The position numbers and the translations under genes were made by a program. The notes under the pieces were generated by a model. The model did no database searches. It saw only the letters and a list, made by a program, of their open reading frames with translations, and was not told the DNA's origin. From an uncultured Planctomycetaceae bacterium (GTDB lineage: Bacteria; Planctomycetota; Phycisphaerae; SM23-33), in the NCBI GenBank assembly GCA_964385465.1, contig CAYLPJ010000028.1, positions 11,789 to 75,788 of the forward strand: 64,000 nucleotides of DNA, read 5' to 3'. Shown piece by piece: positions 6,001 to 42,460 of this stretch. Numbering within the stretch: position 1 is the stretch's first letter; the number at the start of each line of letters is the position of its first letter.

Positions 6001-9000
6001 AGTCCGCGTAGCCATCGCGATTGACGTCTGCCAGCGACACGACCTCGGTGCCGAGCGCCCAGTCCTGCACGAGGCATCGGGCGTCGCCGTCGTCGCCGAC
6101 GGTGACCACGCCGGTCGCGCCGCCGGCGACGACGTACAGGCGGTCCACGTAGCGGTCGTCCTCGCCGGCGGTTGACAGGCGGTACTCGCCGGTCCGCAGA
6201 ACGAGCACGTCGTCCCGCCCGTCGCCGTCCACGTCGGCGACGGCGGTGCGGATGCCGGCCGAGGGGACGCGTTCGATGGACCAGTCCGCGGCGGCATCCC
6301 CCAGGAGCTGCTGCTTGACACCCGAGGTGTCGCTCGTCGTCTCCCGCAGGAAGGCCGTCGCCGAGTCGACGGGCGAACCCGTCTGCAACGCCGCAGCCAC
6401 GCTCTCGCCCGTGAGTACCCGCGCGAAGTACCCCGTCGGGCCGGCCTGGGGGAAGCTGATCATCAAGTCCGCGTTGCCCCCGCCGTCATGATCCAGAATC
6501 GTTGCGGCCAGGGCGCCCTGCGGATAAATGCTGTCGGGAACCGTCGCAACCAGCGGCAGTTCGGACAGCGCCACGCTTCGCTCCGGCCGGGTCGTCCCGG
6601 CCAGCAGCGCCACCTCCGTTCGCGAGTCGCCGCCGCTGTAGCGGTGGAAGGCGATGTCGGCCAAGCCGTCGCCTGTGACGTCACCGACGCCTTCGCCGAC
6701 CGACCAGCCATTCAGATCGATGATGATCTGGGCGGCGTCCGCGACGGACTGCACGCCCGCCAGCCGCACGGGCCCGAGCAGGATGCAGGCGGTCTCGTAG
6801 CCGTGGACGAGGACGTCCTCAAACCCGTCGCCGTTGACGTCGCCGACCGGGCGGTTGCCGGCCAGGCCCTCCAGCGCGGTCGAGCCGGTCACACGACCCG
6901 CCATGCCGATGTCGCGGTCGCCGGCGTTGAGGTCCATGTCGGTCGCGCCGGCGGGATCGGTCAGGCGGGGGCTGGCCAGCGGCAGCTCGAACGCCTCGGC
7001 CGCCGGAAGCGGCGGCGTGGCGGCGTCGATCAGTTCCCGGGCGTGGAACACGTGGGAAGCGGCCCCCCAGCGGTCGGGCAGGCCGAAGTCGGCCTCGCCG
7101 TCGCCGTTGACGTCGCCCAGGGCGACGGGGCCTCCGGCCAACAGCGAGCCATTCTCTGCGGCGTACCACGGCCGGGCGGGTTCGAGGACCATGTTGGGCG
7201 CGTCGAACGCCTCCGGCGCGGTCCAGTCGCGGCCATCGGCGAGGAAGATCTCGTAGACCTGGTGCATCAACCGGGTGCCGTCCTCGCTGACGCGGTGGGT
7301 CAGCTCCCGGGCGGGCGCGGCCAGATCGCCAAGGCCGTCGCAGTCCACGTCGCCGGGGGCCAGCAGGCCCAGTGCATCGACATGATGGCCGGTGGGCGCG
7401 GCGCCGGCGTTGGCGAGGAAGATCCAGCTCTCGTGGGCGGCCTGGCCTGCGCGGCGGGCGGAGACGACGAAGTCTTCCGGCGTTCCACCGCCGTCGAGAT
7501 CGCCCGCCGCCGAGACGGTGAACCCGTCCGCGTCGTCGCCGAGCACGTGCTCGGAGAGCCACTGGAGATTGGCCGAGCCCGTGTTGGTCAGCAGGACCAG
7601 CTTGTCCGTGGCGCGGGTGGGGCACTTGCGACGGATGACGCCGAACTCGTCGAGCCCGTCGCCGGTGACGTCCCCGACGCACGCCACGACGCTGCCCAGC
7701 TCCCCCTCCGGGGCCAGGCCGGCGTACACGGAATACGCCATTTCGTCGCGCGGGCGCACGGACCGCAGCAGGACGTCGTCGACGTGCCAGCCCTCGAAAT
7801 CGTTGAGCATCCAGCCGTTCGTGTCAAACGTGAAGCGCAGGCGCAGCGTGTCCCCGGCGTCGAAGCCGCCGAGGTCCGCGCACGCCCACTGCCAGGCCCC
7901 CGTGCCGTCCAGCAGCCCCTCGCCGTCGTTGCTGAAGATGCGGACGCCGGGCTGCCAACCCAGCCCGTCCGGCTTGACGTCCAGCCAGACCTCCGCCCGG
8001 TCCCAGTGCGACGGCTCGCCCTGCGTCTGCAGGAAGTAGCTGAAGCTCAACTCGACGTGGGCCGCCGCCTCCGTCAGCGTGACCTCCGGCAGGATCAGCT
8101 CGCCTTCGCTGTGACCGACGTCGTAGTTGTGGTCGGCCGCGCCGTAATAGGCCGCCCGGCCCCCGCGGTGCCCGGCATCGTCGGCGCGGAAGTCTGCAAC
8201 GGTCCAGAGCCCGCTGGCGGTCGTGCCTACCGACAGGAAGTCCTCGAAATCGGCGAACAGCAGGCCCGCGTCCGCGTCGTGCCACATGTCCGAGCGATAC
8301 GTCAGGCGGGTCGCCCTGCCCTTGTGCTCGTCGGCGGACCAGGCCTCGCCGACGACCAGGTCGTCCCGCGAGTGGGCGTCGAGGTCCCCGGCAGCGATGG
8401 ACAGCGGGAAGTCGAACGCGTTGACCACGCCGTCGGCCTCGGCGACGACGTCGATCTCGTCCGGCCAGGAGGTCCGTCCGCGGAGGTAGTACACCCCGGC
8501 GAGGCCGTACGGCTGGTCGCCGTGATTGCTGACCATGATCGCCAGGTCGTCCGGCCCGCCGAGGGAACTGCTGATGTCGCCGGAGACGATCTGGCAGCGA
8601 ATCCCGAACGACTCGCCGCTGACGGGGGCGGGCAGTTTCAGCGCGACCGTCCCTCCGCCGGACAACCGAAGGTACGCAATACTGGGCCGCACGTAGTGCT
8701 GTGGGTGGCTCTGGGCGCCGTCCGGAACGTCCTCGCTGTGCCCGAAGTGCTCTTCGGCGGCGTGGATGAAATCCGCCTTGCCGTCGGAATCGACGTCCGC
8801 CAGGGGCACCAGCACGGCACGCGCGCCCGGCCCGCCTTCGGGGTGCAAGTCGGCCGTCGACGCCGCGACGTCCGTGACGTCCCCGACGCGGCTGTCGAAC
8901 TGTATCTGGTAGCGTCCCATCGGCTCGCACGGATCGTCGCTGCTCTGGCCGCTGGTGAAGCCCAGCATCGCCGCGGTGGAGTCGGCGGCGAACTCCACCG

Positions 9001-12000
9001 CCAGGCGTTGGCCGCCCCTGCGGGCCGACAGCACCAGCCGCTCGAGCTGCGGGTCGTAGTAGGCGAACAGGTCGGGATTCCCCAGGGCGGCAGTGAGCGA
9101 TTCGGCCAGGCCGGTGAAGCTCTTGGCGGGCCCGCCGTCGGTCAGGGGCACGGAGATGGTCTGGCGGTTGCCGTTGTAGATCACGTCCAGGACGGCGTCG
9201 GCGGCGCCGTAGCCGACGGTCGGCGCCGACCCCGCGGCCACGCCGAAGCTGCGCGGGTTCACGACGTGAAGGAGGTAGTAGTCCGGGGTGCCGGCGAACT
9301 GCTCGGCCGGCGTCAGGGCCAGCGGTCGTTCCCCGTCGGTCGCGACGGCGGCGTAGAGGTACACGTTCTGCTGGTGCCCCTCGGTGGCGGTGCGCGGCAG
9401 CCAGGCGCTGTCGGTCTGCCCGGCAACGAGGTCCACGCCGTCCAGCAGGTCACGGTCCAGCGTGGTTTCGAAGACGACGCGGATCATCCCGGCGGTGAGG
9501 GTGGCGGCGTCGGCCTGGCCGAAGCTCCGCTCCGCTCGCGGTGGCGGGAGAATGTACCAGTCGCCCGCGTCGGCGGAGTTGAACGACAGGTCAACGGCCG
9601 CGCTGCCGCCGCTGGGCGCAGCCAGCAGGGCGGCGAAGGCGGCGCTGTCGTTGAGGCCGGCCTGGCCGTAGCGTTCGACGGCCTCGTAGTCGTCGCTGCT
9701 GACGCCGGCGGCGCCCAGCAGCAGGTCGTTGCCCGGGCCGCCGTAGAGTTCGTCGTTCCCTCCGCCGCCGGCGAGGAAGTCCGCCCCTCCGTCGCCGTGG
9801 ATCACGTCGTCGAGGAACCCGCCGAACAGCCGGTCGTACCCGTCGCCGCCGTGAATCTCCAAGAAACCGATCGCCGCGCCTTCCTGGAGGTTGCCTTGCT
9901 TGATGCCCCACTCGCTGTCGGTCCAGCCGCTGCCGTCGGCGCGGGGGAACCGGTACTCCGGGTCGCCGCGGACCTCGTCGTCGCCGGCGCCCATCTCGAA
10001 GGTCGTCCCCTCGACGCGCTCGGCCTCGTAGTAGGCGTAACGCTGGAGATAGAGCTGCACGTCCCCCTCGGCGGCCGTGCCGACCGGCAGGCCCAGCTCG
10101 ACGGCCGCGACGTCGTTGGCCGCCGCCACTTCCAGGCTGCCCCCGGGCGCCGTCGTCAGCCGCAGCCGCAATCCGTCGAGGTCGCCGCGAACCGCGCCGT
10201 CCAGGCCTTCGGCCGCCAGGGCGTCGCGGACCGCCTGGACCAGCCCCACCGCGGACCGTCCCGGTCCGGCGGGAACGTCGCCCGCCGAGTGGTCGATCAT
10301 CAGCGTGTGGTTCGTTCCGTTCACGCAGAGTTTCAGCAGGGCCTGGCCGGTGAGCAGGCCGTTGTCGGGCAGGTCGGCCGTGCCGGTCAGCGCGGCGGGC
10401 GCTGCCCCCGAGGCCGTCAGGTACCGCTGATTGGCGATGTCCCAGACCAGCGAACTGACCTCGTAGCGGTGCAGGAAGCGGTTGTAGCGGATGGCCACGT
10501 GGTCCGGCACGGGGCGGTTGAGCCGGTCGGTGTCCCCGCCGAGGTAGAGCACCCGGTCGTTGCCGGCTCCGCCGTCGAAGACGTCCGCGGACGTGACGAA
10601 CACCGGCGCGCCGGTCAGCCCGCTGATCGGCAGCTCGTCGGGGACGACCTGGAACACGTCGTCGCCGACCTCGCCGAACAGCAGATCGCCGGCCTGCCTG
10701 TCGCGCCCGCCGGTCAGGACGTCGTTGCCGCCGCCGCCGAAGATCCAGTCCTCGCCGGGCCCGCCGCAGAGCACGTCGTGCCCGGCGCCGCCGAGCAGTA
10801 CGTCCCGCCGCTCGGCGTTGTCGCGCAGTGCCTGATCGAACGCGACCGGCGCCGCCGAACCCACCTGGACGGTCAGGTCGTACGCCGTCGGCACGGCGAG
10901 CGGGGAGCGGACGCGGACGTAACAGGTCACGCCGGCGCCCATCCCCGTCCCGCCGGCCAGGTCGATCGCCTCCATCTCGCCGTCGCCGTCGAGGATGTAC
11001 GTCTCGGCAAGCACGTCGCCGGCGTCGCCGATCGTCGCGGCCGCCGTGACGGTGACGTCGTCCGCGGCCGCCAGGCGGAAGCTGTACCAGTCCACGTCCG
11101 ACGGGTTGTCGAGGGTCAGGCCGGTGAAGGCGACCGAGCCGGCCAGGTCGCACGCGTCGGCGTACTGCCCGGCCCGCAGGCCGAGCAGAACGGCGGCGTC
11201 GCTGTCGTTGACGCCGAGAACACTCAGCCAGCCGTCCGGCCCGACGGCGGTGGGGCGCAGTCCGAGGGCCCCGTCCACGTTCTCGGCGACGACCAGCCCG
11301 GCCAGGGCCGAAGCGTCGATGGCCGTGTTGACGTCCGCGACGAGGTCCGCGAACGTGCTGTTGGTCGCCGTGGCCGCGGCGGGCAGGTAGACGCTCACGC
11401 CGTCCTCGCCCGCGAAGGCGAGGTCGCTGCCGGTCAGGGTGAAGCGTGCGGTCGTTCCGGCGGGCAGGCGGCCGTCGGCGGGTCCGGCCTGCTCGGCGAC
11501 GAGCATCATGGGGCCGTAGATCCCGAACGCCCGCGCGGGGTCGGTGAGGTCGGACACGTTCTCGTTGCGGGAGGGGCTTTCGGTGCGGTCGGAGAGGATC
11601 ACGTTGCCGCCTTGGAACTCGACGCGGTCGTCGCCGTCGCCGGCGTCCACCCAGACGCTCGTCTGGACGGTGGGTCCGACGTAGACCTCGTCGTTGCCGC
11701 CCAGCGCGTCGACGATGATCGCCAGGAAGTCCCCTTCGCCCGGCAGGAGGTTGCCCTCGAGGACGATCTCCCGGTACGCCGCGCCGCGCTCGTCGGGTTC
11801 GAGCTCGCCGATGGCGTGCAGGTCCATCAGGACCTCGGTGGCGTCCCAGACGCGATCGCCGTTCTCGTCCCGAGCGTCGAAGTCCAGCCGGACCTGCGCG
11901 TCGAAGGTGTAGTGGCCATCGTTGTTCGTCAGGCGCGTGATGAGGTGGTGGTCCTGGAGCAGGCCGGGCTCGGTGACATAATCGACGGTGATGACGTCGT

Positions 12001-15000
12001 CGGCCCCTGAACCACCGTAGTACCAGACCTTGTTGGTCGATCTGGCGTAGGCCTTCCAGGCGTCGTCGCCGGGCAGGCCGTATGCGTCCTCCAACAGCGC
12101 GCCGTCACGCGTGTACAACAGGTCATCCCCGCCGTTGCCGTACAGGAAGTCCAGCCCCGTCCCGCCGTAGAGCTCGTCATCCTGTCCGCCGCCGAGAACG
12201 CGGTTCATGCCGGTGTCTTCGAGCGTGCGCCCGTCGTCGGGCTCGCTGTAGACCCGGCCGGTGACGGCGTCGATGAACACCCCGAAGGTCGCGCCGTCGG
12301 GCTCGGCGGGGGGGTGTCCCTGCCCATCCAGGCCGGTGAACGCGCCGTCGACCTGCTGGCGGGGGTGGAAGGACCAGGCGTAGAGGAAGTTGCCCGGCGC
12401 GCCCCCGGGGCCGATGTTGTCCCCGCCGCCGATCAGGTCGTCGTTGCCCGCGCCGGCGAACAGGCGGTCCTGGTCCCCGCTGCGCCCGCCGCCGTGGCGG
12501 TCCCCGTGGAGCCGGTCGTCCCCTCCGAGGCCGTACAGCCAGTCGCTGCCCGCTCCGCCGTCGATCAGGTCCCGCCCGGTCGAGCCGAGAACCACGTCAT
12601 CCCCGCCACCGCCGTCAAGCCGCGCGACCCAGTCGCGGCTGCGCAGAGCCAGTTCGCCCAACTCCAGCGCCGTCTCGCCGGCCGCGAAGCCGATCACGTC
12701 GTCCCCGCCGAGCCCGGAGATGGCGAACTGCTCGAGCGTCGCCTGCCCGTCGGCGTCGCGCCAGTCGGCGGCGAAGGCGGCCCCGCCGGCATGGAGGTTG
12801 TACTCGACCAGGAGGCGACCGTCCGGCGCCTGGCTCAGCAGGATCACGTCGTCGGCCTGCGTGCCGTTGATCTGGAGGATGTCCGTCCACAAGTCCTCGC
12901 CGGCGTCGTCGGAGCCGCGGTTGCCGCCGTGGCCGTTCAAGGCCGACTCGCCGTAGGCGTCGTAGGCGGTATCGAACGTCAGGAAGTCGTTGCCCGCCCC
13001 GCCGTAGAGCCAGTCGGCCCCGTCCTGGCCCTCCAAAACGTCGCTGTCGGCGCCGCCCCGGAGTTCGTCCTCGCCGCCGCCGCCGAAGAGGTGGTCTTCG
13101 CCCCCGTCGCCGTAGAGCAGGTCGGCGGCGCCGGAGGTGTCCGCCGACGTGCTCGGACCGTAGTTCGCCCCGTCGAGGTAATCGCCGTACAGGTCGTCGT
13201 TGCCCGAGCCGCCGATCAGCACGTCGCGGCGCCGGTTCCCATAGAGGATGTCGTTGCCGCTCTGCCCGTCGAGCCAGTCCCCCCAGCCGGTCCCGTCGTC
13301 GCCGTCGGGCGCGAAGGCGTAGAGGTAGTCCCGCCCCGGCCCGCCGAAGAGGCGCTGGCCGGCCTGCACGGCCCCGGTGCCCGTGCCGCCGTCGCCGTAG
13401 AGCGAGTCGCTGCCCTCCTCGCCGTAAAGCCGATCCACCCCGCCTCCGCCCTTGAGCGTGTCATTGCCCGAGCCGCCGCGGAGCACGTCGTCGCCGGCCG
13501 CGCCGGTCAGCTCATCCATGGCCGAGCCGCCGTCGAGGTAATCGGCCCCGGTCCCGCCGTCGAGGTGGTCGCTCTGGCCGCCGCCGAAGAGCCAGTCCGT
13601 GTCGTCGCCGCCGCGGAGCGTGTCCGTGCCGTCCTCCCCGCCGGCGATGCTCAGTCCGGCCACGATCGCCGGGGTGATCCGCGCGAGCGGGGGCATGGCG
13701 GCGAGGTAGCCCGAGGGCGCCATCGCGTCGGCGGAGTCCTCGTGCGGGGCGCGGACGAACAGCGACGCGTCGGACAGATCGAACGCCTCCCACTCGTAGA
13801 CCATCGAGCCGCCCCAGATCACGTCGCACCCGGGTCCGCCGCTCAGCGCGTCGTTGCCCGGGCCGCCGACGATGAGGTCGCAGCCGGCGCCGCCGTTGAT
13901 CGTGTCGTTGCCGGCCCCGCCGACGATCAGGTCGTAGCGGTCCCAGCCCCCGTCGTTGCCGCCTGCGCTGATGTCGTCGTCGCCGCCTTCACCGTAGATG
14001 ACGTCGCGCCCGTCGCCAGTGACGATCGTGTCGCCGCCCGCGCCGCCGTGGACCACGTTGTCGCCGTGTCCGGCCAGGATGGTGTCCGCACCCTCGCCGG
14101 CGTGAATCGTGTCGTCGCCGTCGCCGGCCTCGACGTGGTCGTCGCCGCCGCCGGCGTCGATCGTGTTGGTCCCGCCGTAGGCGTGGATCTCGTCCCGAAG
14201 ATCTCCGGTGACGATGACGTCGTCGCCGTCGTCGGTGTGGATGACGTTGCGCCCGCCCCCGGCGTGGACGGTGTGGGGGGCGTCCTCTCCGGCGTCGCTG
14301 CGGAGGTCGATGACGTCGTCGCCGTCGCCGGTGGTGACGTTGTCGGCCCCCGCGCCGGCCCGGATGCGGTTGGTGCCGGCGCCGGCGTGGATGACATCGT
14401 TGTCGCTCAACCCGGGCGGCAACGAGCCCGGCCCGGCGTGAATCTCGTCGTCGCCGTCGCCGGTGGTGATCTCGTCGTCGCCGGTGAAGGCGTGGATCAC
14501 GTTGCCGCCACCCCCCGCGGTGATGACGTCGTCGCCGAGGTCGCCATAGACGGTTTCGCTCCAGCATCCGGCCCCCGCGTCCAGGATGTGGATGGAATCC
14601 GGCTCGCCGGCGTCGGCGCTGCTGGAGCCCGGCGTGGTGGTCGTGCCTGCAATCAGCGTGTCGCCGCCGTCCTGGCCGTACAGCTCGTCGCTGCCGGGCC
14701 CGCCGTACAGCGTGTCGTCCCCGCCGCCGCCGTGAAGCACGTCGCGCCCCCGCCCGCCGTCGAGATGGTCGGCCTCGTCCCCGCCGTCGAGGTGGTCGTT
14801 GCCGCCGTCGCCGTGCAGCTCGTCGCTGCCGCCCTCGCCGTACAGCAGGTCCATTCCGTCGCCGCCGTGAAGCTCGTCGGCGTCGGCGCCGCCGTGAAGC
14901 GTGTCGCCGCCCTCGTCGCCGCGGAGGACGTCCCTGCCGTCGCCGCCGGTGAGATGATCCGCACCCATCCCGCCGGACAGCTCGTCGTCGTGACCGCCGC

Positions 15001-18000
15001 CGAACAGCTCGTCGTCGCCCATCCCGCCGTGGAGGGCATCGTCATCGTCGCCGCCGTGGAGTTCGTCGTCACCCATGCCGCCATCCAGGCGATCATTGCC
15101 CGAGCCGCCGTAGAGGCGGTCGTCCCCCGCGCCGCCGGTCAGGACGTCGTCGACGACGTCCGGCCCGGTCAGGCCGGCGTTCCCGTCGTCGCCCTCGCCG
15201 GCCGAGAGCAGCTCGCCCGTGCCCGCGGCGAACGTGGCCGAGCCGGCAGAGAGAATGTCGTCGCCGTCGCCACCGTCGAGGAGGTCGTGGCCGGTCCCGC
15301 CGATCAGCACGTCGTCAAAGTCGCCGCCGTTGAGCGTGTCGTCCCCGGCGCCGCCGTCCAAGCAGGCCGGCGCCCCGCCGGCCGTGAGCGTGTCCGTGCC
15401 CGCGCCGCCGACAAGATGCACCGGCAGGGCCAGCCGTCGGTCGGCCGCGAGGAGATCGTCGCCGTCCCCGCCGTCCACGTAGATGCCCGTGACGCCGGTG
15501 TAGGTCTGGCGCAGCCCGAGGGTCTCGACGGTGACTTCGCCATCGCCGCCGCGGCGCAGTTGCACCACGTCGTCCATCGCGTCGTCGCCGGCCGGGCCGC
15601 CCTGTCGCAGGTGGCTGTGCGGGCCGATGTGCACCAGCAGCGTGTTCGCCTCGAGGACCTCGCCGTCCGGCAGGGCGAGCGGTTCGGTGAGCACGCTGGC
15701 CAGGACTGGGTCGGGCTCCTCGGCCTGCTCGGGCCGGTCGGGCCGTTGGAGGTCATACTCCACGAGCGTGACGTGCCCGAAGTCGACGCTCTTCTCCCAG
15801 GATGTAAACAGCAGGTCGACGCGGACGTAAGCCTCCAGGCCCGCCTCGACCTTGCCGCTGACGTCGAAGATCCAGATCGGCCCGAGCATGAAGTTGTCGG
15901 CCAACTCGTCCAGCCGGACCTTGCCGTCTTCGTCGGGGTCGTTGAGATTGAACTCGACGCTGGCGTAGACGCCTCCGCCGACGCCGCCGCGCGCCACGCC
16001 GAGGTTCAGCTCCGCCGAGGCCACCAGCGAGCCCCGCAGCACGACTTCCGCGTTGTCGCGCCCGCCGGCGGCGTCGGCAACGTAGATGCCGTTGAGCAGG
16101 TCCAGCGGATCGCCGGTGCGGGCGACGTCGAAAATGCCCTGCGTGTCGTAGCCGAAGTCGAAGTCGATCTCCGCGCCGATCGTCCCGGCGATGCGGCAGC
16201 CCAGCGGGCCGATGATCGTGAAGAACTGGCTGTAGGTGAACTCCAGGTCCAGCGACGGCATGTTGTAGGTGATGAGGTCCACGTCCTCCCGGCCGAGCAG
16301 GAGCTGCATCACCATGGCGGGGTCGTCGATGAGGGGAAAGGCAAAGCCTTCGCCGTCGGCGTCGTCAGCGGCCTTGGGGATCGAGTCGTAGTACGAGCGG
16401 ACCTCGGGCCCGGTGGCGTCGAGCGATGAGGGGATGGGCGCAAGCGGCTCGGGCTCGCCGAGTTTGCCCGCGGCATCGTAGCTCATCGTGTAGCTGCCGA
16501 TCGGCATCCATACGCTCTCGCCGAATTGCGGGATGCTCAGCAGGTCGATTACGTCGGCGACGGCCTGGACGTACCTGGCGGCCCGCTCGGCCCCGCTGCC
16601 GAACAGCGAGGCCAGGTCCAGCAGCGTGATGTCCCGTCCCATGAGGTCGCTGATGCCCGCCAGCGGGGCGGTCAGGGCGTCGACGATGGGCTTGACCGGC
16701 TCGATGATCTCGTTGATCTCTCCAAGCAGGTTGCCGAACGCCCCGCTGAGATACTCGCCCACGTTCAGGCGGACGTCGCGGAATGCGATGGTCGGCTGCG
16801 GGTCGAGAATGTCGTCCAGGCTGCCCAGCGGCCATGCCACGTGCAATTCGCCGGCCACCGACGGCAGCATGCCCGAGCCCAGCGACGCCTCGATGTCCAG
16901 GTGCAGCCCGCACTCGGGATTGGTGAGCGTCGACTCGATGATGTCCGCCCCGGCCGTGGCGAGTTCGGAGATCGTCAGTCGGCCGTCGCCGCTGGGCTCG
17001 ACGATGTCCACCTGGAACTCCAGGCCCAGGCCGTTGAACTCGCCGCCCATCAGCGCGGCGGTCAGGTCGAGCGGACCCAGCTCACCGGCGGCGTCCAGCG
17101 AGGTCACCTGCACGTCCGCCGCCACCGTCACATCCGGCTGGTCGTCGATGTTTCCGACGTTGAAATACACGCCCTCGGAGCGGCTGATCCCGAAGCCCAG
17201 GTGCATGTCCAACGTCACGTCGACGCTGACGGAGCCGTCCACGGCCAGGCCCAGGCCGGGCACGTTCGCGTCCAGGACGAAGTCGTCGCCGGCGAAGCTC
17301 CAACCCGCCCCCAGCCACATGTCGTACTGCACGCGGTCCGTGTGCAGGTTGACCGTCTCGGGGATCATGAGGACGTCATCGAGCGTGGTCTCGCCGTCGG
17401 CGTTGGCGTCCTGGAGCCACCCCAGCCCGCCGGTGCCCAGCGCGTCCCACAAGGCCTGACGGATCGCCTGGGGCGAGTCGCCGACGGCCTCCAGCGTATC
17501 GACGAGCTGGGGCCGCATCTGCCCGACGAAGTCCGCGGCGTCGCGAAGCTGCGTGCCGATGATCGGGAACTCCAGGCCGAAAAGCTGGCTGTCCAGGGAA
17601 TCCTGGAGGATGGCGAGCATGCTGTCGATGCCGGCGGTGAGCACGCTGAGGTCGCTGCCGAAGTCCAGGCCGTCCATGTGGGCGCGGATGGTCTCGCCCA
17701 GATCGCCCGGGGTGAACTGGATATCCGGGTCGGTCAGGTCGTCGAGGGTCCAGACCAGCTCCGCCAGCTTGTGGTCGCGCGTGGGGAAGTACAGGGGCAG
17801 TTCGGCCCACGCCTGTTCGGGATACCCGCCGGAGGGGGCGTGCGTGACGTTGACGGTCAGGTCGCTCAGCAGCGGCTCGGCGTCCGCCAGCGTGCGGACG
17901 TCGCCGTCGCCCCCGAACTCGAAGTAGTGCCTCCCGTCCCCGTTGCCGTCCGTCAGCCCCGCCGAGAGGGTGGCGTCCAGGTAGCACGCGCCGTTGTCGT

Positions 18001-21000
18001 CGTCGGCGTTGCCTACGTACATTCCCAGCGCCCCGACGGCCGCGGCGAACTCCAACTCCTCGCCGGCGACGTTCACGTGCGCAACGGCGCCCGTGCTGTC
18101 GTAGACGAACGGGCGTGGATTCGTCGGGTCCGCGAAGTCCACGCCGAGATGCAGGCCGAGGTCCACGTCGGCCGTGACGTCGAGCTGTCCGTCGTTGCTG
18201 AAATCGAACATGCTCGTCAGGCCGGGCACATCGAGCACGCTCAGGTCCAGCGCCAGCGGGAACGTTCGCCCCGCGTTGCCCTCGGCGTCCTTGAGGATGG
18301 TGCTGAAGTCCAGGTCCAGCCGGAGCGCCGGGCCGGCCGGATCGATGCTCAGGCCGACCGCCTCGGCCGCCAGGCCCAGCGCCTCGGCCAGCTCGCCGGA
18401 CAGCTCTTCCAGCAGCGCCTGCGTGCTGAGGTTCACCTCCGCCACGCGGTCGGTGAGGTCGGCAACGAAGCCGAGCATGTCATCGAGCCTGCGCCCGATC
18501 AGCGGCAGCGTCTGGCCGAAGGGTCCGGCTTGGGCGATGGCCCCTGCGGCCCGGCCGGCCATGCCCAGCATCCCCTGCACGTCCGCCAGGGCGAGCGGCT
18601 GAAGGTTCAGCAGCTTGTCGAAGCCGTCCAGCACGGATGCCAGGCCGGCGAGATTGAGTTCGACGCGTGTGGGGAACGTCGAGCCGTCGGGCGCCGGCGG
18701 CAGGCCCGGCGGGGGAGGGGGGGGATTGATCGAGAAGACATCGCTGGAGTGCAGCTCGATGGCGGCGTCCGTCTCGATAAGCTGGCTGACGTCCACCCCG
18801 GCGATCTGGTCGTCCGCCTTGAGCGGCAGGCGGGCGTCCAGCGCCCCGCCGACGTCGAGCTGGAGCAGTCCGCTCGTGCCGTCGCTGAAGTTCCCCAACT
18901 CCCGCAGCAGCGCGTCCAGCGAGACGTCGGCGGCGCCCGTCCGCAGGGCAAGCTCGGCCGTCAGCGAGGCCTCGCCGTCCTGGATGCCCAGTTCGATCAT
19001 CTCGCCGAGGACGAACGTCGCGTCGATGTCGTCGGCCTCGACGCTCAGCCTCGCGTTCCACTCCATGCCGCTCTGGATGTATACGTGCTTCTCGAGCGTG
19101 TCGCCGTGGAGCGGCGCGGTCTCGACCACGCCATCCCCGTCGACGTCCTGGCCCAGCAGGCCCGGGGCCACGCCAGCCATCGAGCCGCTCGCGGCGCCCA
19201 CCTTCAGCATGGCGTCCTCGTCGGGCGCCGGGCCCGGATTCGACTCGGTGAAGGTGATCCGGTGCGTCTCGCTGTCGAGGGCGATCGTGAGCTTCCCCGC
19301 CGCCGTCGGCGGAATCGCGGCAGTCAGCTCCGCCGCGAGGTCGGCGGGCCTGTCCGTGCCCGAGACGCCAGAGAGGTCGAGCCCGACGGCCGTGCCGTCA
19401 CGCAGCGTCACGAGCACGTCCGCCTGCCCGGCCGGGCTGAGAAGCTGGTCCCACTTGTCGAGCGTCAGCTCGTTGAGAGTGGGCCAACCGTTCTCGGCGA
19501 CGGTGAAGCCGAGCTTGCGGAGGTCCATGACCATCGTGAAGGCTAGATCGACGTCCCCGGTCAGTTGCCCTGAGCCGGACGTGCTGAAGCCGCTGATCGG
19601 AGAGATCTCCAGTGAGCCCAGATCCAACGGCGACGCCAGTTCGGGGAGGCTGTCGGCGACGTGGAACTCGTACAGCAGCGCCGGTGCGGTCGCGCCGCCG
19701 GGCAGGGCATAGGCGGCGTCGTAGGTAACGGCCGTCAGCGCCGGCAGCAGGTCCCGCAGGGCCTGTGCGGTGTCGAAAGCGGGCAGGCCGGGCTCCGCTT
19801 CGAGCAGGTCGGCGACCTGCGCGTTGAACGCGGCGCGGGGGTTGATCGCATCGCCGAGGCGTCGCCCGGTCGTCGGCAGGACCACGTCGAAGGCGTCCGT
19901 GGCGGCCAGATCATCCAGCCACTGGCCGATCTGCTCGAGCACGCCGGCCACGCCCCCGGCGGAGAGGTCCTGGAAGCGGCGCAGGTCCTCGCCGGGCGCG
20001 AACGTGACCGTCGGCAGGGCCGGGTCGAAGAGGTCGCCGTCGAAGACCGTCGCGGTCACGCCGGCGCTGAGCCCGTCGATGCCGGTGGTCACCGCGGCCG
20101 GAAGCTCGATCTTCAGGAAGTTCGGCGGATCGTGGGGATGCGCCGGATCCGGGTCGCTGCGCGGGGTGAACTGGAGGGTCTCATCGATGGTGTGCGCGCG
20201 CATGCGGGCGGGCGTGATCCGCTCGCCGTACGGGCCCATGTCGAGCACCGCGCCGGTCACCCCCGCCGTCAGCGCCGCGCTGCCCCCGGAGAGGGCCAGC
20301 CCCAAGAACCCCAGGCGTGCGCCCAGGGACAGGTCGCTCACGTTCAGCGCCGCCGAGGCCTCGAACCGCGTGATCTCCGCGTAGGCGATGTCCCCCGGGT
20401 CGTCGGCTGTCAGGTCGATGCCCAGGTGCAGACCCAGTTCCAGCGACGCCGTCAGGGCGGCGTCGATCACCCCGTCCAGGATGAGTCCCGCGTCGAGCAG
20501 CTCGTTGGTGAAGTCCGACCTGGCGGCATGCGTCACGCTGTGGGAGAGGGTCCAATCGAGCTGGAGCTCGTCCTCCGCACCGGCCGTTGCCGAGGCCCCG
20601 ATCGCCGCCGCCAGCCCATCGATGGTCGCGGGGTCGGCGGAGTTCAGGTAGTCGGCCATCGGCTGGTGGACGTGGTCCCGGAAGAAGGCGGGCATGTCGA
20701 GCAATTGGCCGATAGAAGCCGGCTGGCCCTCGTTGACCGCGGCGACGGAGACGCCGGGCAGCGCCCGGCCCGCTGGACCCAGCGAGTGGGCCAGGGAGCC
20801 GAGCGTCGCCAGTTCCTCCGCCAGGTTGCGCAACGCCGCCACTTCCTGCGCCGTCAGAACGCGTGACGGCGACGGCGCGGCGAACTCGACGCGCATCTCG
20901 CCCGCCGTCGCGTCGTCCGTCGTCGCGATGTCCGCGCCCAGGGCGCTGTTGATCTGCGAGACGAGCGAGGGATCGCCCACACGCAGCGCCTCCAGCGTGA

Positions 21001-21997
21001 GCCCCGCGGCGACGGCTGCGGAGTCCAGCGCCTCGGCCTGCGCCACCACGTCGGCATTGGCGGCGGGCAGGACCAGGTCGGCCTGCATCCCCGCCCGCAG
21101 GCCGCCGCCGCTGAGTGTACTCAAGGCGAGCACCTGGATGCCCCCGCCGGCCGGTGCGGCGGTCTCCAGCACCGACAGCACCCAATCCGTCGCCCAGTTC
21201 GCCGGCTCGGCGACGCTGGTCCACTGCTGCCAGTGCGGCGCGTTCGATTGGTTCAGCCACCCCGCCGTCTCGGCATCCAGCAGGCCGCTGCCCGCGGCCG
21301 GGCTCAGTGTGGCTGCGTCGTCCACGGCCGCCTGAAACAGCTTCAGCGCCGCGGCGCTGTGCGGGTCGGCCGCGCCGTCCACCTCGACTGGTCGCCCTCG
21401 GGCGTCCACGAAGCCAAGATAGGCAAGACGCTGCTCGGCCCGCATCTGTGAGAGCATCCCCCCGGCCGGCTCGACCAGGGCCGTGCCATCGCCGACCGAC
21501 GAGAACCCGCCGTCTATCTCGACCGTTGCCGTCGCCGTCGTCGCCGCTCCGCCGACGTCGAGGAAGTCGTAGGTCAGCGAGAGAGTGCCCTGGAACCCGT
21601 CGGCCGCGGGGTTCGCATCCGTGCCGAGCCCCGACACCGTTGCCGGCGCGAGGTACAGCCGACCGGTCGCGGCGAAGGGGCGCCCGTCCACAGCGTCGCC
21701 GTAGAACAGCCTTCCGACGACCTGGTTGTCGGCGAGCAGGTCCCATGCTGCCGAGCCGGGGCTTTCGCGGAGCGTCACGGCCTCATCGGCAGTGCTGAGC
21801 GTGACGCCCTGAAGCTGAAAGCCGCCCTGCGCATCCCCCTCGAGTGAGCCGATGTCGACAAGAAAAACGTCCCCGGTGCGTCCGTGGACGTCGCTAAGCA
21901 AGATGCGCGGTTCGAGCGGCTCGAACTGCGCCTGGAGCCGCTCTGAATCAACTCTCCCTGTTACCCACGCGAACACCGACCGCGCGTCGAACGCCAT
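1..21997 (-). CDS. Giant multidomain surface/adhesin-like protein, at least 7,332 aa, C-terminus beyond the left window edge. N-terminal LEPR-x-LL-like motif, PG-binding-like module, about 1,000-aa RTX (GGxGxDxL) block, FG-GAP/VCBS block, LRR block, Cna-B/SdrD-B-like domain, at least four PKD-like domains
   Basis: Reverse-complement translation in the frame whose codon first bases are congruent to 1 mod 3 gives protein-like sequence with very high GC3 at every place sampled. Sampled positions were 79, 334, 1588, 2731, 5830 and 21445-21997. The frame is open from the ATG at 21997..21995 (preceded by an in-frame TAA at 22099..22097 with no other ATG between) to position 2. The ORF track lists no real-looking minus ORF here, as expected for an ORF with no stop inside the window. 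All listed plus-strand ORFs over 1-22000 have antisense-type composition. N-terminus reads [36 protein letters not shown]. Representative motifs: FG-GAP '[17 protein letters not shown]', RTX '[35 protein letters not shown]', LRR '[36 protein letters not shown]', PKD '[17 protein letters not shown]' and '[15 protein letters not shown]', Cna-B '[36 protein letters not shown]'. Confidence 0.8.
   Translation of the reverse strand, partial: [7332 protein letters not shown]
4500..8900 (-). repeat. FG-GAP/VCBS-type repeat block inside giant gene 1
   Basis: Minus-strand translations such as '[19 protein letters not shown]', '[15 protein letters not shown]' and '[22 protein letters not shown]' recur throughout this interval. 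Confidence 0.5.
12350..15500 (-). repeat. RTX / hemolysin-type Ca-binding nonapeptide repeat block (about 1,050 aa) inside giant gene 1
   Basis: Minus-strand translation shows hundreds of GGxGxDxL/I/F-type nonapeptides, for example '[82 protein letters not shown]'. The underlying DNA is a recurring GGCGGC/GACGAC-rich motif. Confidence 0.65.
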
Positions 21998-29542: not shown

Positions 29543-30562
29543 CTACGTGAAGACCACCCAGTCGTCGTCCTTCTCGGGCTCGGGCTCTTCGGCCTCCGGC
29601 TCGGCTGCCGGCTCGGCTTTGGTCTGGAAGCCGACGCGCTCGCGAATGACGTACAGCGGACGGGCCCGGGCCTCACTGAGCGTTCGGCCGAGGTACGCCC
29701 CCAGGATGCCGAGAATGAGGAACTGTCCGGCCAGCAGGAGCACGAACCCGGCGGCGACGTGGGCCCACCCGCCGGGTGCGAGCCCGAAGGGCCAGAGCAG
29801 CAGCGCCAGCAGCGCGTAGACGCCGACGCCGGCGATGAGCACCGCGCCGATCACGGTCGCCAGGCGAAGCGGCGCCAGCGTGGTGCCCACGACGGCCTCG
29901 CCGGAGGCCCGCGCCAGGCGCCAGAGGTCGCGGAAGGAGGGCGCCCGCCTGGCCGGTCCGCCCAGCCGTACGGCCGTCTGGCGGAAGCCCACGCGATGGA
30001 TCAGCCCGCGGTAGATCCGCCCCCGCTCGCCGTGGGCGGCCAGGGCGTCGACGACGCGGCGGTCCAGCAGGTACAGGTCGGGGCTGTCGGCGAGGTCCGC
30101 CCCGCAGAGCCACCGCACGCCCCGGCGGAGCAGCCCGGCCAGGGTCGCGCCCAGCCGCGGACCGGCGTCGGACGGGCGGCGGACGCCGTAGACCACCTCG
30201 AAGCCCTCCCGCCACCGCGCCACCAACTCGCCGAGGCTCGCGATGTCCGCCGGCTCGTCGGTCGCCAGCGTGATCACCGCCTTGCCCGCGGCAAGCTCGT
30301 GCCCGGCCGTCAGGGCCGCCTGGCGCCCGAACGACCGCGAGAACTCGACGGCCTTGACGCGCGGATCCACCTCGGCCAGCCGGCGGATCTCGGCGGCGGT
30401 TTCGTCGGTGCTGCCGTCGTTGACGAACAGGATCTCGTACGGCTCGGCGAGGTCGTCGGCGGCGACCTTCAGCCCGCCGTAGAGGTGCTCCAGCACCTCC
30501 TGGCGGTCGCGGACGGGAATCACGAATGTAAACGTCAGCTCATCAGCCATGCGGCTCTCCAT
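29543..30562 (-). CDS. Family 2 glycosyltransferase (polyprenyl-phosphate sugar transferase, DPM1/ArnC-like) with C-terminal TM helices
   Basis: 339 aa. 'FVIPVRDRQEVLEHL' and 'YEILFVNDGSTDETAAEI' form a GT-A fold with a DxD-like motif. The C-terminus is hydrophobic (LLALLLWPFG..., VLLLAGQFLILGILGAYLG). Confidence 0.8.
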   Translation of the reverse strand: MESRMADELTFTFVIPVRDRQEVLEHLYGGLKVAADDLAEPYEILFVNDGSTDETAAEIRRLAEVDPRVKAVEFSRSFGRQAALTAGHELAAGKAVITLATDEPADIASLGELVARWREGFEVVYGVRRPSDAGPRLGATLAGLLRRGVRWLCGADLADSPDLYLLDRRVVDALAAHGERGRIYRGLIHRVGFRQTAVRLGGPARRAPSFRDLWRLARASGEAVVGTTLAPLRLATVIGAVLIAGVGVYALLALLLWPFGLAPGGWAHVAAGFVLLLAGQFLILGILGAYLGRTLSEARARPLYVIRERVGFQTKAEPAAEPEAEEPEPEKDDDWVVFT

Positions 30563-38746: not shown

Positions 38747-39271
38747 ATGGCCAAGGAGTACAACATCACGCGGACGAGCGGGCGATGCGCCGCCTGCGAC
38801 AAGGAGATGGTCCCGCAAGAGGAGTTCGCCGCCGCCGTGCTGGAGGCCCCGGCCGACGCCGAGGAGGACTTCCTTCGACGGGACTACTGCATGGCATGCT
38901 GGCCCGAGGCCGAGAAGGACCTCGCCGGCCGGGACGATGTCTTCGGCACCTGGCGCAGCCGCGTGCCCAAGCCAAAGGAAAAGAAGCGCACGTTCGTGGA
39001 CGACGAGTTGCTGGTGAACTTCTTCCAGCGGCTTGACGGGGCCGACGAACCGGCGAAGATCAGCTTTCGCTTCGTCCTGGCGCTGGTGCTGATGCGAAAG
39101 AAGCTGCTCGTCTACGAACGCTCCCGCCCGGGCGAGGGCGACAGCGAGATCTGGACAATGCACTTCAAGGGAGACGACGCGACATGCGAGGTGATCGACC
39201 CGCATCTCGACGAGGACCGCATCGCCGAGGTCAGCGAGCAACTCGGCGCGATCCTCGAAGGCGAGCTGTGA
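38747..39271 (+). CDS. Hypothetical protein with CxxC...CxxC zinc-ribbon-like N-terminus
   Basis: 174 aa. 'CAACDKEM...CMACW'. Its ATG is 2 nt after the stop of the upstream cyclodeaminase gene, which suggests translational coupling. Confidence 0.55.
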   Translation: MAKEYNITRTSGRCAACDKEMVPQEEFAAAVLEAPADAEEDFLRRDYCMACWPEAEKDLAGRDDVFGTWRSRVPKPKEKKRTFVDDELLVNFFQRLDGADEPAKISFRFVLALVLMRKKLLVYERSRPGEGDSEIWTMHFKGDDATCEVIDPHLDEDRIAEVSEQLGAILEGEL

Positions 39272-42431: not shown

Positions 42432-42460
42432 TTGACACCCCCATGAGGGCCAAGTAGAAT
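42432..42460 (+). promoter_or_regulatory. Putative sigma70-like promoter of giant gene 2: TTGACA-N17-TAGAAT
   Basis: 'TTGACAcccccatgagggccaagTAGAAT' has an exact -35 consensus, a 17-nt spacer and 5/6 of the -10 consensus. It sits in a GC dip about 100 nt upstream of the ATG at 42563. A 'gggag' SD lies about 10 nt before the ATG. Confidence 0.4.

Follow-up and report, generated by a model that had tools for sequence, protein, structure and literature searches.

Two giant repeat-rich proteins carry a known N-terminal LEPR-type tag that probably serves as a leader for export without a Sec signal peptide

The window, that is, the whole 64-kb stretch of DNA analysed here, encodes two giant proteins surrounded by housekeeping genes (Table 1). 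Giant 1 starts at an ATG (21997-21995) preceded by GAGGA, and no stop codon interrupts its frame through to window position 2, so that the complete protein must be longer than the part encoded here. Pfam and NCBIfam models place RTX nonapeptide blocks at roughly nt 9700-15150 and also detect FG-GAP, PKD, LRR, Golvesin_C and ELWxxDGT repeats or domains. The protein is rich in aspartate (11%) and glycine (14%) and poor in lysine and cysteine (0.5% each), and hydropathy analysis found no transmembrane segment. Giant 2, which is identical to P0001 and forms a singleton cluster, contains 29 FG-GAP/VCBS-type stretches and lacks both cysteine and transmembrane segments. No NCBIfam family, type I secretion target domains included, was found in its last 1500 residues. 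Its N-terminus reads MSSFFETPSGPEFVPSFEPLEERLLLTTIRGG, and the promoter-like site upstream was found once, against 0.0 expected in shuffled sequences. Both giants are most likely surface proteins or secreted proteins that bind calcium and are rich in repeats.

Table 1. Positions of the two giant genes and of their N-terminal features in the window
Feature	Position	Strand	Evidence or remark
Giant 1 ORF, >7332 aa, C-terminus beyond the window	2..21997	-	GC3 0.92 in frame; Pfam and NCBIfam; hydropathy and composition
Giant 1 leader, residues 1-24, hydrophilic, net charge about 0	21926..21997	-	Translation, hydropathy
Giant 1 motif core, residues 25-35 (11 residues)	21893..21925	-	Translation; NF012209 match at residues 24-35
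Sigma-70-like promoter TTGACA-17-TAGAAT, 11/12 positions	42432..42460	+	About 100 nt upstream of giant 2 start; consensus match only
Giant 2 ORF, 5492 aa	42563..59041	+	Translation
Giant 2 leader, residues 1-16 (MSSFFETPSGPEFVPS), acidic, without basic n-region	42563..42610	+	In-frame stop 9 codons upstream
Giant 2 motif core FEPLEERLLLT, residues 17-27, LEER variant of LEPR	42611..42643	+	Translation

BLASTP detects no similarity between the two giants other than a short N-terminal motif. A back-translated FEPLE.R.LL pattern matches the window exactly twice, once in each giant, while 100 dinucleotide-preserving shuffles of the window gave a mean of 0.00 matches. A scan of all six frames for LE.R.LL found none in the window beyond these two sites. 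The shared motif is therefore confirmed as real and non-random in the window. It had been noticed in a preliminary description of this DNA and is present in both proteins as claimed, although the nucleotide coordinates given there for giant 1 cover F25-S35 and not Q24-D36.

The motif is not a new observation. It corresponds to the ExLExRxLL core of Pfam PF07595 (Planc_extracel), a family from 2004 that is described as a putative new export signal at the N-terminus (consensus RRLxxExLExRxLLA). Mahajan et al. 2021 (PMC8567305) reported the tag on eight of the ten longest proteins of Tuwongella immobilis; proteomics detected 20 of 52 carriers in this species, eight of them solely in the SDS-soluble fraction (PMC8567305). 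The window giants are thus new carriers of a known tag, as the preliminary description had suspected when it equated the motif with the database element LEPR-XLL. Against this NCBIfam model (NF012209, cut-off 17 bits), giant 1 passes with 21.3 bits and giant 2 fails with 9.5 bits. Neither giant matches PF07595, which was matched by 6 of 89 ORFs with FEPLEPR.LL from other genomes. The low score of giant 2 and the missing PF07595 matches count against the leader reading given below. It had also been stated that the function has no experimental basis, and this agrees with the searchable literature, which contains passing mentions only and no experiment on leader export, cleavage or binding.

The absence of a Sec-type h-region, likewise claimed earlier, was borne out by Kyte-Doolittle means. 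Within the first 80 residues the best 10-residue mean is 1.5 in giant 1 and 1.1 in giant 2. Means over 17 residues do not exceed 1.6 at any place in either protein. Neither giant has a hydrophobic segment. Reassignment of the start codon yields no signal peptide. In giant 2 it is excluded because no start codon lies between its start and the in-frame stop upstream. In giant 1 it is excluded because the one other start upstream, a TTG, would extend the protein by about 30 hydrophilic residues.

In GTDB genomes, exact FEPLEPR.LL occurs 111 times, and 101 of these matches lie at most 130 codons past an upstream in-frame stop. Ninety of the 101 are in long ORFs, while nine look-alikes encoded by the same DNA pattern (FEPFEP[SR]) are internal or in short ORFs. 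The leaders of carriers rarely contain a hydrophobic stretch (10-residue mean above 2.0 in just 2 of 88), and their median net charge is +5. A charge of about 0, as in giant 1, is unusual among them. The giant 2 family follows the same arrangement: homologues have [FL]E.LE[EQP]RLLLTT, with LEPR in some, at the position of the giant 2 motif, and at 25 metagenome loci the tag lies 12-30 residues past the start methionine.

Two earlier claims did not hold. The motif was thought to be an element of Planctomycetota, but N-termini with exact FEPLEPR.LL are also found in Alpha-, Beta- and Gammaproteobacteria, Desulfobacterota, Verrucomicrobiota and further phyla. It was also tied to giant size and adhesin repeats, whereas the median length of complete carriers in Planctomycetota is about 790 aa, and carriers include proteases, phytase, cyclophilins and carbohydrate-binding modules. 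The domains within 400 residues past the tag are of extracellular type and unrelated to one another (DUF4347, LTD, RTX, Big_9, cadherin, FG-GAP, PA14, subtilase, LamG, phytase, C11 and C25 peptidases, dockerin and CBM). No C-terminal feature is shared among 25 complete carriers.

We infer that the tag is a portable mark for export or surface display without a classical Sec or Tat signal peptide. It most likely acts as a leader for Sec-signal-independent export, a reading that we hold with moderate confidence. In this reading the motif, [hydrophobic]-E-x-L-E-x-R-x-L-L, is the conserved core of a short leader without hydrophobic segments; a variable part that is as a rule basic precedes it, and residues that are small or acidic follow. 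Export or sorting outside the Sec route, also favoured in the preliminary description, is a published hypothesis and fits the present sequence results. Neither window leader has the basic stretch that carriers typically show, which counts against the leader reading. Alternatively, the first fold may include some of the motif, which would then not lie in a removable leader: in the giant 2 family the tag runs directly into a conserved LLLTT.xGGEFFIY segment, and this segment is drawn as beta strands in a low-confidence model (mean pLDDT 39).

The leader reading gains a candidate machinery from other genomes. At 13 loci, all outside the window, tag genes adjoin at least one gene of a recurring cluster that encodes a PqqD-like/site-2-protease/HlyD fusion, a wing-less SecA-like ATPase, further HlyD-type adaptors and DUF3467. 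The top Pfam families among 91 neighbour ORFs are HlyD_D23 (10), HlyD_3 (8), SecA_DEAD with PP_bind and P-loop_SecA (5) and DUF3467 (4). At L146, genes for MFP, DUF3467, GAF-HlyD, the PqqD/M50/HlyD fusion, the SecA-like protein and a tagged giant form a co-directional operon with gaps of 24, 33, 21, 1 and 222 nt. Part of this synteny could reflect co-inheritance with the giant 2 family, whose genes adjoin cluster genes at L127-L130, L132, L135, L137, L144 and L145; three unrelated LEPR proteins have cluster genes as neighbours as well, at L058 (Phycisphaerales MAG), L115 (Ca. Adiutrix MAG) and L086 (unclassified MAG). Carriers beside the cluster are a minority: they account for 3 of the 89 GTDB loci and for 9 of the roughly 22 distinct loci of the giant 2 family. 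T1SS-type genes, and not the cluster, adjoin some carriers in proteobacteria and Chlorobium, which counts against the proposed route. An inner-membrane channel, an ABC transporter or an outer-membrane factor was not seen in the cluster. The sorting machinery had been supposed to be possibly unknown; it may not be entirely so, since this cluster adjoins carriers elsewhere, but tblastn found none of its genes in the window.

This previously undescribed gene set could be an export machine for the tag. The leader would leave the ribosome first. A membrane protein that combines a cytoplasmic PqqD-like recognition domain, a site-2-protease (M50) core and a HlyD-type domain in the periplasm would bind it, in extended form, through the first of these. 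For the first 100 or so residues of the fusion, the top four PDB matches are PqqD/RRE structures (5sxy, 3g2b, 6jx3_B and 5vrd) with weak scores, from E 0.016 (5sxy) to 0.27, and a precomputed Pfam PqqD match, also marked weak, concurs. The SecA-like ATPase would then drive the chain from N to C, further HlyD-type adaptors would bridge the periplasm, and the M50 core would remove the leader. The fusion has conserved HExxH and NxxPxxxxDG motifs in its transmembrane region. Such a machinery may also exist in the window's own genome. The ATPase aligns to B. subtilis SecA over residues 6-608 only, with GEGKT and DEADS kept; its motor domain and its preprotein-binding domain are retained, whereas wing, two-helix finger and tail are missing. 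An independent parallel is offered by the Omnitrophota giants, in which wing-less SecA domains lie inside the giant itself and have been proposed to export it.

Back-translation of FEPLE.R.LL gave two matches in the window, exactly at the motif sites of its two largest ORFs (giant 1 and giant 2; see the table), and a mean of 0.00 matches in 100 dinucleotide-preserving shuffles. Both matches lie within residues 17-35 of the proteins, and LE.R.LL was found nowhere else in the six frames of the window. No hydrophobic stretch was detected in the first 80 residues or elsewhere in either giant. Within the first 80 residues, the highest Kyte-Doolittle mean over 10 positions is 1.5 in giant 1 and 1.1 in giant 2, too low for a Sec h-region, and a Tat signal is absent from both N-termini, which have no RR and no h-region. 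Upstream of the start codon, an in-frame stop is reached after 9 codons in giant 2 and after 33 in giant 1. There is no start codon between this stop and the ATG of giant 2, and the sole upstream alternative start of giant 1 adds hydrophilic residues. The upstream stops leave no room for a hidden signal peptide, so that reassignment of the start codon cannot create one. The preliminary description had reported a tag shared by the N-termini of two giants that lack Sec signals, and both observations are real. BLASTP revealed no similarity between the two giants beyond the motif region; a G[DE]xF is common to both a few residues after the motif. Word-indexed searches with the first 300 and the first 45 residues of giant 1, and with the first 400 residues of giant 2, found no homologue. 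The leader, that is, the residues ahead of the core, is neutral in giant 1 and acidic in giant 2, while most proteins that carry the tag have a basic one.

Several repeat families were found in giant 1, namely RTX nonapeptide repeats (about 20 stretches), FG-GAP, PKD, LRR, Golvesin_C and ELWxxDGT repeats. The RTX stretches (17 + 3 matches to HemolysinCabind) are all internal, at about residues 2280-4100 of more than 7332. In giant 2, the only recognisable features are 29 FG-GAP/VCBS-type stretches; RTX repeats are absent, and NCBIfam detected no family in its last 1500 residues, T1SS signals being poorly conserved. Both proteins are acidic, with about 11% Asp, 14% Gly and only 0.5% Lys, and are nearly free of cysteine (none in the 5492 residues of giant 2, 0.5% in giant 1). 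This composition fits extracellular, calcium-binding, adhesin-like proteins.

Location of the giants, their motifs and related features in the window and at loci (L numbers) from the genome and metagenome scans
Feature	Location	Strand	Remarks
Giant 1 ORF	window 2..21997	minus	ATG at 21997-21995 after GAGGA; open to position 2; 7332 codons, C-terminus beyond the window; GC3 0.92
Giant 1 motif	window 21925..21893	minus	residues 25-35; core EPLEPRILL, last residue S
Giant 2 ORF	window 42563-59041	plus	5492 aa; GC3 0.97; N-terminus MSSFFETPSGPEFVPSFEPLEERLLLTTIRGG
Giant 2 motif	window 42611..42643	plus	FEPLEERLLLT, residues 17-27; core EPLEERLLL
Promoter-like site	about 100 nt upstream of giant 2		TTGACA-17-TAGAAT
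GT2 gene	window 29543-30562
Double M16 (insulinase-type) peptidase	window 35293-37992	plus	899 aa, upstream of giant 2
SapC-family gene	L025:1071-1868		beside LEPR giant, Oceanospirillales MAG
SapC-family gene	L033:1133-1975		beside LEPR giant, Oceanospirillales MAG
Candidate cluster	L146:2350-9778		gene order: MFP, 297 aa; DUF3467, 123 aa; GAF protein, 642 aa; 721-aa protein with weak precomputed PqqD match; SecA-like, 662 aa; then the tagged giant (10001-20701), 3566 aa, start MSIPAESPPENLLPQFESLEQRLLLTT
Candidate cluster	L128:2254-9664
Candidate cluster	L130:2-2456
Candidate cluster	L132:2-2942
Candidate cluster	L137:2-3045
Candidate cluster	L135:197-3387
Candidate cluster	L086:1857-5918		unclassified MAG; cluster gene directly upstream of LEPR gene, same strand
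Candidate cluster	L115:1-3699		Ca. Adiutrix MAG; cluster gene on same strand as LEPR gene
Candidate cluster	L058:7218-7998		Phycisphaerales MAG; cluster gene divergent to LEPR gene

The tag had been recognised in the preliminary description as the LEPR-XLL element of protein-family databases, which is correct by score for giant 1 and not for giant 2. NCBIfam NF012209, 'LEPR-XLL domain' (model LEPR-8K), is an N-terminal model of 24 positions with a curated cut-off of 17 bits. Giant 1 aligns above this cut-off, with 21.3 bits on its first 200 residues (residues 24-35 on model positions 2-13) and 17.3 bits on a piece of 3666 residues. Giant 2 reaches 9.5 bits (E 0.8) and falls below it, because LEER replaces LEPR. 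The extreme N-terminal location that defines LEPR-XLL is found in both giants. Published occurrences of NF012209 include giants of Vibrio and Chlorobium, with lengths from about 8,000 to 36,806 aa; the model carries no function. The second relevant family, Pfam PF07595 (Planc_extracel), gave no match at E <= 10 with the first 200 or the first 45 residues of either giant, and among the matches listed a Pfam scan assigned 6 of 89 other FEPLEPR.LL-bearing N-termini to it. Its consensus RRLxxExLExRxLLA, as quoted in PMC8567305, shares with both giants the ExLExRxLL core, the N-terminal position, the lack of an h-region and the tie to cell-surface-type and very long proteins. However, the RR/basic prefix is absent from both window N-termini, and the last residue is S or T instead of A. 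The family is named 'Planctomycete extracellular' and labelled a planctomycete-specific cell-surface signal (Studholme, Fuerst and Bateman 2004, as presented in PMC8567305), unlike the motif itself.

Giant carriers of the tag are already on record. Tuwongella immobilis has 52 carriers, 20 of which were detected by proteomics, 8 of them solely in the SDS-soluble fraction (Mahajan et al. 2021, PMC8567305), and 8 of its 10 longest proteins (4,016-10,566 aa) have the tag (PMC8567305). In Chlorobium chlorochromatii, a 24-aa LEPRxLL element is present on proteins of 36,806 and 20,647 aa, and these LEPR giants are flanked by TolC-like and SapC genes (2026 preprint). A Vibrio giant of about 8,000 aa combines an N-terminal LEPR-XLL with C-terminal RTX and serralysin domains (Vibrio genome paper). 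Some authors simply term the tag a signal peptide, and no functional study of it was found in the searchable literature. The pattern of giants that share the tag and lack a signal peptide is therefore not new, and the motif was also already known. The window adds two more carriers, one canonical and one a LEER variant, which is a modest result. The reading of the tag as a candidate for sorting outside Sec is reasonable; its novelty, its restriction to Planctomycetota and the supposed link to giant size need correction. Among the matches listed, carriers also occur in Alpha-, Beta- and Gammaproteobacteria, Desulfobacterota and others, and ordinary enzymes are found among the 52 carriers of T. 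immobilis (PMC8567305).

The distribution of the tag was obtained by scanning one genome per GTDB species with the exact back-translation of FEPLEPR.LL, which gave at least 120 loci. Among the GTDB matches listed, 111 are true motif matches; an upstream in-frame stop is no more than 130 codons away in 101 of them, and 90 of these 101 N-terminal matches are in long ORFs. The internal control FEPFEP[SR], which has the same DNA pattern, occurred nine times, eight in short ORFs and one deep inside a gene. By our own classification of the record titles, Planctomycetota supply 50 of the 89 long-ORF N-terminal carriers analysed among the matches listed (Phycisphaerae, Pirellulales, Planctomycetaceae and Tepidisphaerales). 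A further 24 belong to Alpha-, Beta- and Gammaproteobacteria and 8, one of them labelled Syntrophaceae, to Desulfobacterota. The remaining 7 include Verrucomicrobiales, Anaerolineales and two contigs of one bin with the label Nealsonbacteria.

Among the matches listed, leaders are usually basic (median net charge +5), and a hydrophobic 10-mer was detected in only 2 of 88. The core is followed by [SAD][AG] and then often by D. SAD occupies this position in 21 of the 24 Pseudomonadota carriers, and Planctomycetota are more varied here, with shorter and less basic leaders. The 400 residues after the tag contain, in the same set, DUF4347 (11), LTD (7), RTX (5), Big_9, cyclophilin, cadherin, FG-GAP, PA14, subtilase, LamG, phytase, C11 and C25 peptidases, dockerin and CBM. 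Such modular spread of a short terminal element over otherwise unrelated extracellular-type proteins would be the classic signature of a sorting or export tag. The window leaders resemble the short leaders of Phycisphaerae, a resemblance only. An aromatic patch about 15-25 residues before the motif was observed in some leaders (LWRWLGERTG, MWSWLGEKTG, VFAWSRSDE; loci L008, L031, L058, L076 and L119) and is also present in giant 1 (window 21950-21976, minus strand). The possibility of another leader element farther upstream, W..[RK], was considered and rejected, with Trp at 1.6% and no clear peak at any position over all carriers.

Relatives of giant 2 were recovered with a two-sequence profile of the window N-termini, searched against 1.84 billion representatives. 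The search returned giant 2 and six further N-termini, which define the family [FL]E.LE[EQP]RLLLTT[LIV].GGEFF[IV]Y.NS, and a metagenome scan added 25 loci of this family. At all of these loci the start Met and the motif are 12-30 residues apart, and the ORFs are longer than 3000 aa where the flanking sequence is long enough. LEPR, LEQR and LEER occur at the same position among the homologues, with LEPR in one protein of the representative search (P0008) and at loci L121, L125, L130 and L137. Since this family has E, Q or P where 'LEPR' has its Pro, the LEER of giant 2 is, judging from the aligned homologues, a natural variant of the same element, and not a member of NF012209 by score. The motif runs into a conserved LLLTT.xGG[DE]FF[IV]YxNS, in which the GG (residues 31-32 of giant 2) is only partly conserved. 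An AlphaFold model of residues 1-300 of giant 2, built with six homologues, was unusable, with a mean pLDDT of 39 and values below 50 for residues 1-24. The 3566-aa homologue P0007 (L146:10001-20701) has a C-terminal papain/C39-like region of about 330 residues (GCAPTAAGM...NHAVVAVGYD), with a faint precomputed Pfam match to Peptidase_C39_2. Giant 2 ends earlier, right after the common ...LLDGDADGTPGGDY..F segment, and has no peptidase-like region. The unrelated P0003 (925 aa) contains twelve tandem internal copies of KDLEPLQKRIELST, a look-alike of the motif; motif-only searches therefore need a filter for N-terminal position. Three other proteins of the search (P0004, P0005 and P0008) are on short contigs with no gene context.

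Genes that accompany the tag were sought in both collections. No neighbour is universal to the 89 GTDB carriers across 150 flanking ORFs, among the matches listed. Some proteobacterial carriers have neighbours of T1SS type, such as an HlyD-type MFP (L011, L042 and L074), SapC (L025 and L033) or, at some loci, an OEP. The SapC genes beside LEPR giants match the SapC/TolC neighbours of the Chl. chlorochromatii giants, so that a second, T1SS-like context of the same tag may exist in Proteobacteria. Conserved neighbours stand out more clearly beside the giant-2 family. Pfam recognised a SecA-like protein of about 660 aa with SecA_DEAD, SecA_PP_bind and P-loop_SecA and no wing or scaffold match, three HlyD-type proteins of about 295, 628 (with GAF) and 724 aa, and a DUF3467 protein of about 125 aa. 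In 91 neighbour ORFs from 26 loci, the most frequent families were HlyD_D23 (10), HlyD_3 (8), the three SecA domains (5 each) and DUF3467 (4), and the top 25 families include no ABC transporter, OEP or SecY.

With tblastn, genes of this candidate cluster were detected beside giant-2-family genes at L127, L128, L129, L130, L132, L135, L137, L144 and L145, and also beside three unrelated LEPR proteins of the GTDB scan (L058, L086 and L115). At nine cluster loci the motif occurs once in each, at the N-terminus of the adjoining giant. Independent gene calls for L146 (GCA_034189755.1) show co-directional genes with gaps of 24, 33, 21, 1 and 222 nt. A rough estimate, in which the cluster is single-copy and the genome about 5 Mb in size, predicts it in fewer than 0.3 of 89 random blocks of 8 kb; 3 were observed among the matches listed. 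None of the cluster proteins has a tblastn match in the 64-kb window. The search for co-occurring genes, suggested as a route to the cognate transporter, yielded a candidate: the cluster stands beside tagged genes at 12 listed loci and at L146, while the window has none of it and no partner is universal. No paper describing the operon was found in the searchable literature. Directly downstream of the tagged giant at L146 (20854-25763) there are genes for GT2, DUF2304, PMT_2 (protein mannosyltransferase-like), a further GT2 and an epimerase, which may hint at glycosylation of the cargo, as at the accessory Sec loci of Gram-positive bacteria.

The SecA-like protein aligns with B. subtilis SecA over residues 6-608 only (E 6e-148), which takes in the two nucleotide-binding domains, the preprotein cross-linking domain and the beginning of the scaffold helix, and it retains GEGKT and DEADS. 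Every copy ends at the equivalent of residue 608, with ...LRTDDWLD.YLGFAG.ER, and thus has no wing domain, two-helix finger or C-terminal tail. The largest HlyD-type protein is a fusion of 721-736 aa, with an N-terminal domain of about 100 residues, about six TM segments and a C-terminal HlyD barrel-sandwich domain. PqqD was the only PDB sequence match of the N-terminal domain, and the top four PDB matches of a three-sequence profile were PqqD (5sxy, E 0.016; 3g2b), TfuB1 (6jx3_B), which binds the leader of a lasso peptide, and PqqCD (5vrd). The evidence for a putative PqqD-like domain is weak but concordant, and agrees with the weak precomputed Pfam match at L146. The TM region contains a conserved HExxH (HEFAH, HEGCH, HECGH, HEFGH) and NxxPxxxxDG (NGNPLLRFDG), the signature motif pair of site-2 (M50) intramembrane metalloproteases. 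For DUF3467, which may be SecB-like, a profile search of the PDB gave no meaningful match and no solved relative by sequence.

On balance, the tag probably forms the core of a leader for export or sorting independent of a Sec signal, although we put this at little better than even. That it is the address label of an undescribed envelope-spanning exporter of diderms (Planctomycetota, Desulfobacterota and others), with the window giants as cargo, is a tentative proposal, possible rather than probable. In such an exporter, the PqqD-like domain would read the leader and the fused site-2-type metalloprotease would remove it, while the wing-less SecA paralogue would drive the chain as the energy source in place of an ABC transporter, and the several HlyD-type adaptors and DUF3467 would carry very large surface proteins across the periplasm. 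An N-terminal tag would be useful for a protein of 5,000-7,000 aa, as the chain could be engaged during translation. What the sequences show is the motif and where it sits, the missing h-region, the modular spread, the synteny and the domains of the neighbouring genes; the binding and cleavage of the leader, the site of cleavage, the direction of transport and the identity of the membrane channel and of the outer-membrane exit are what we infer. Pfam has listed the motif since 2004, NCBI annotation rules have included it for years, and it is carried by dozens of proteins per planctomycete genome and by many of the largest known bacterial proteins. An operon that recurs beside tagged genes in different phyla is a testable candidate for the cognate machinery, and this lead comes from outside the window. 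If it is correct, the operon would explain the export of megadalton adhesins that have no signal peptide and would make secretome prediction possible in Planctomycetota and other environmental phyla.

In function, this scheme would resemble leader-dependent type I export, as known for colicin V, but with other components in place of the ABC/C39 part. Double-glycine leaders of the PCAT type (CvaAB-TolC) are also short, non-hydrophobic and N-terminal, with conserved Glu and Leu followed by small residues, and they are recognised and cleaved by a dedicated exporter that works with an HlyD-type adaptor; the candidate cluster likewise has a putative recognition domain, a protease, an ATPase and HlyD-type parts. 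However, the tagged cargo ranges from 250 to more than 7000 aa instead of peptides, the protease would be M50 instead of C39 and the ATPase is SecA-like instead of ABC. A Gly-Gly (or GA/GS) site is not conserved across the carriers among the matches listed, and no C39-ABC gene was found in the window or among the neighbour families. The accessory Sec system (SecA2/SecY2) of Gram-positive bacteria exports very large serine-rich adhesins with atypical long signal peptides. The likeness lies in a second SecA encoded beside a very large adhesin-like substrate with an unusual N-terminal signal, and in the glycosyltransferase genes near the L146 giant. Unlike that system, the candidate cluster has no SecY2 or Asp proteins, its SecA-like protein is far more truncated, the leader of the tag has no hydrophobic core at all, and the partners are HlyD-type proteins of diderms. 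PqqD-like RRE domains, such as PqqD and the B1 proteins of lasso-peptide pathways, bind short conserved leader motifs as an added strand, and the fusion begins with a domain that best matches PqqD and TfuB1. The scores are weak, and the comparison differs in that a giant's N-terminus takes the place of the peptide, a membrane protease and a periplasmic adaptor are joined to the domain in one protein, and modification enzymes are absent. Finally, SecA_DEAD and SecA_PP_bind domains without wing and scaffold occur inside giants of Omnitrophota, and West-Roberts et al. (bioRxiv 10.1101/2023.11.21.568195) proposed that they export the giant of which they are part. By analogy, this is an independent link of a truncated motor of the same type with giant proteins, although in Omnitrophota the motor lies within the giant together with many TM helices, whereas here it is a separate gene and the giants have no TM segment and an LE.R.LL leader.

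The main alternative is that the giants are T1SS substrates, exported C-terminus first through an ABC/MFP/TolC system, with the motif serving at the trailing end as a tether or retention element, as a docking site of the nascent chain or as a processing site, in the manner of LapA. Acidic, Gly/Asp-rich, Cys-poor proteins with no signal peptide are the usual T1SS cargo, and both giants have this profile, to which giant 1 adds its RTX nonapeptide stretches. The pairing of LEPR-XLL with C-terminal RTX and serralysin in Vibrio, the TolC-like and SapC genes of Chl. chlorochromatii and the MFP, OEP or SapC genes that adjoin several proteobacterial carriers point the same way. The RTX adhesins LapA and MpIBP are likewise giant, repeat-rich and Ca-binding, with no Sec signal and an N-terminus of special role; however, their N-terminus is retained by a folded module of about 100-150 aa that has a LapG cleavage site, not by a linear motif of 10 residues, and T1SS genes normally adjoin them, whereas none adjoin the window giants. 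No ABC exporter, MFP or OMF gene was found near either giant within the window. The RTX blocks of giant 1 do not lie beside its C-terminus, and giant 2 has neither RTX repeats nor an NCBIfam family in its last 1500 residues. The 25 complete carriers have no C-terminal feature, anchor or signal and no TM anchor in common, and GGxGxD was found in only 6 of them. A system with a C-terminal signal needs no strictly conserved N-terminal tag, and 52 carriers in one planctomycete, ordinary enzymes included, are many for T1SS (PMC8567305). We regard this alternative as unlikely.

Less likely again is a role other than targeting, in which the motif starts or caps the first folded domain, or contacts a protease or chaperone, and the surface signal lies elsewhere. 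It would account for the continuity of the motif with the conserved stretch that follows it in the giant-2 family, for the G[DE]xF after it in both window proteins and for the strand in which the AlphaFold model places residues 25-27 (LLT), although that model is unreliable. The same 10-residue core, however, precedes at least a dozen unrelated domain types, which argues against a structural element of one fold; the residues after it vary by lineage (SAD in most Pseudomonadota, varied in Planctomycetota, among the matches listed), and its position is almost always within the first few dozen residues. The tag could also be an ordinary Sec or Tat signal that looks odd only through a wrong start codon or an unusual composition, as the name used by some authors and the loosely tripartite layout of most carriers (first a basic stretch, then a core rich in Leu and then small residues, for example SA or AG) would suggest. 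Yet the would-be h-region holds two Glu and one Arg, hydrophobic 10-mers are nearly absent from the leaders among the matches listed, twin arginines with an h-region are lacking in both window leaders, and the upstream stops leave no space for a hidden signal, which makes this very improbable. Slighter still is the chance that the resemblance is fortuitous or due to common descent of the two genes. The internal repeats of P0003 show that look-alikes exist, but no match was expected in the window, both fell at the start of its two largest ORFs, and the giants have no other similarity and no detectable homologue of either N-terminal region in the word-indexed search. Judged by the sequences, these last two explanations are effectively excluded.

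The genes between and after the giants are housekeeping genes, with no secretion gene among them. They encode AnmK, a lone ABC ATPase, DnaK, an alpha/beta hydrolase, GT2, RsmE, a GH106-like protein, an M16 peptidase, an RDD-domain protein, two PaaK-like ligases, an ACT protein and POR/TPP subunits. Two were considered as partners of giant 2 in processing or transport and rejected, the M16 peptidase, a possible leader peptidase, and the RDD protein (39657-42011), because no giant-2-family gene has either of them as a conserved neighbour. The 784-aa RDD ORF has a family match only in its C-terminal 140 residues, and its long N-terminal part has none. In this region upstream of giant 2, the plus-strand ORFs 39184-40284 and 39657-42011 overlap, and a long minus-strand ORF (39981-42389) competes with them. 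ARAGORN called a 92-nt tRNA-Ala(GGC) at 32293-32384 (minus strand), inside and antisense to the GH106-like ORF 31548-34613. It is probably a false positive, because Rfam finds no tRNA there at gathering score; no Rfam match was obtained anywhere in the window. The GC content of the window is 70.5%. Each of six window proteins looked up, including giant 2 and DnaK, is a singleton cluster at 90% identity among about 15 billion proteins. Not even DnaK has a near relative, so the window stems from a lineage that has been sampled little and has no close relatives in the collections.
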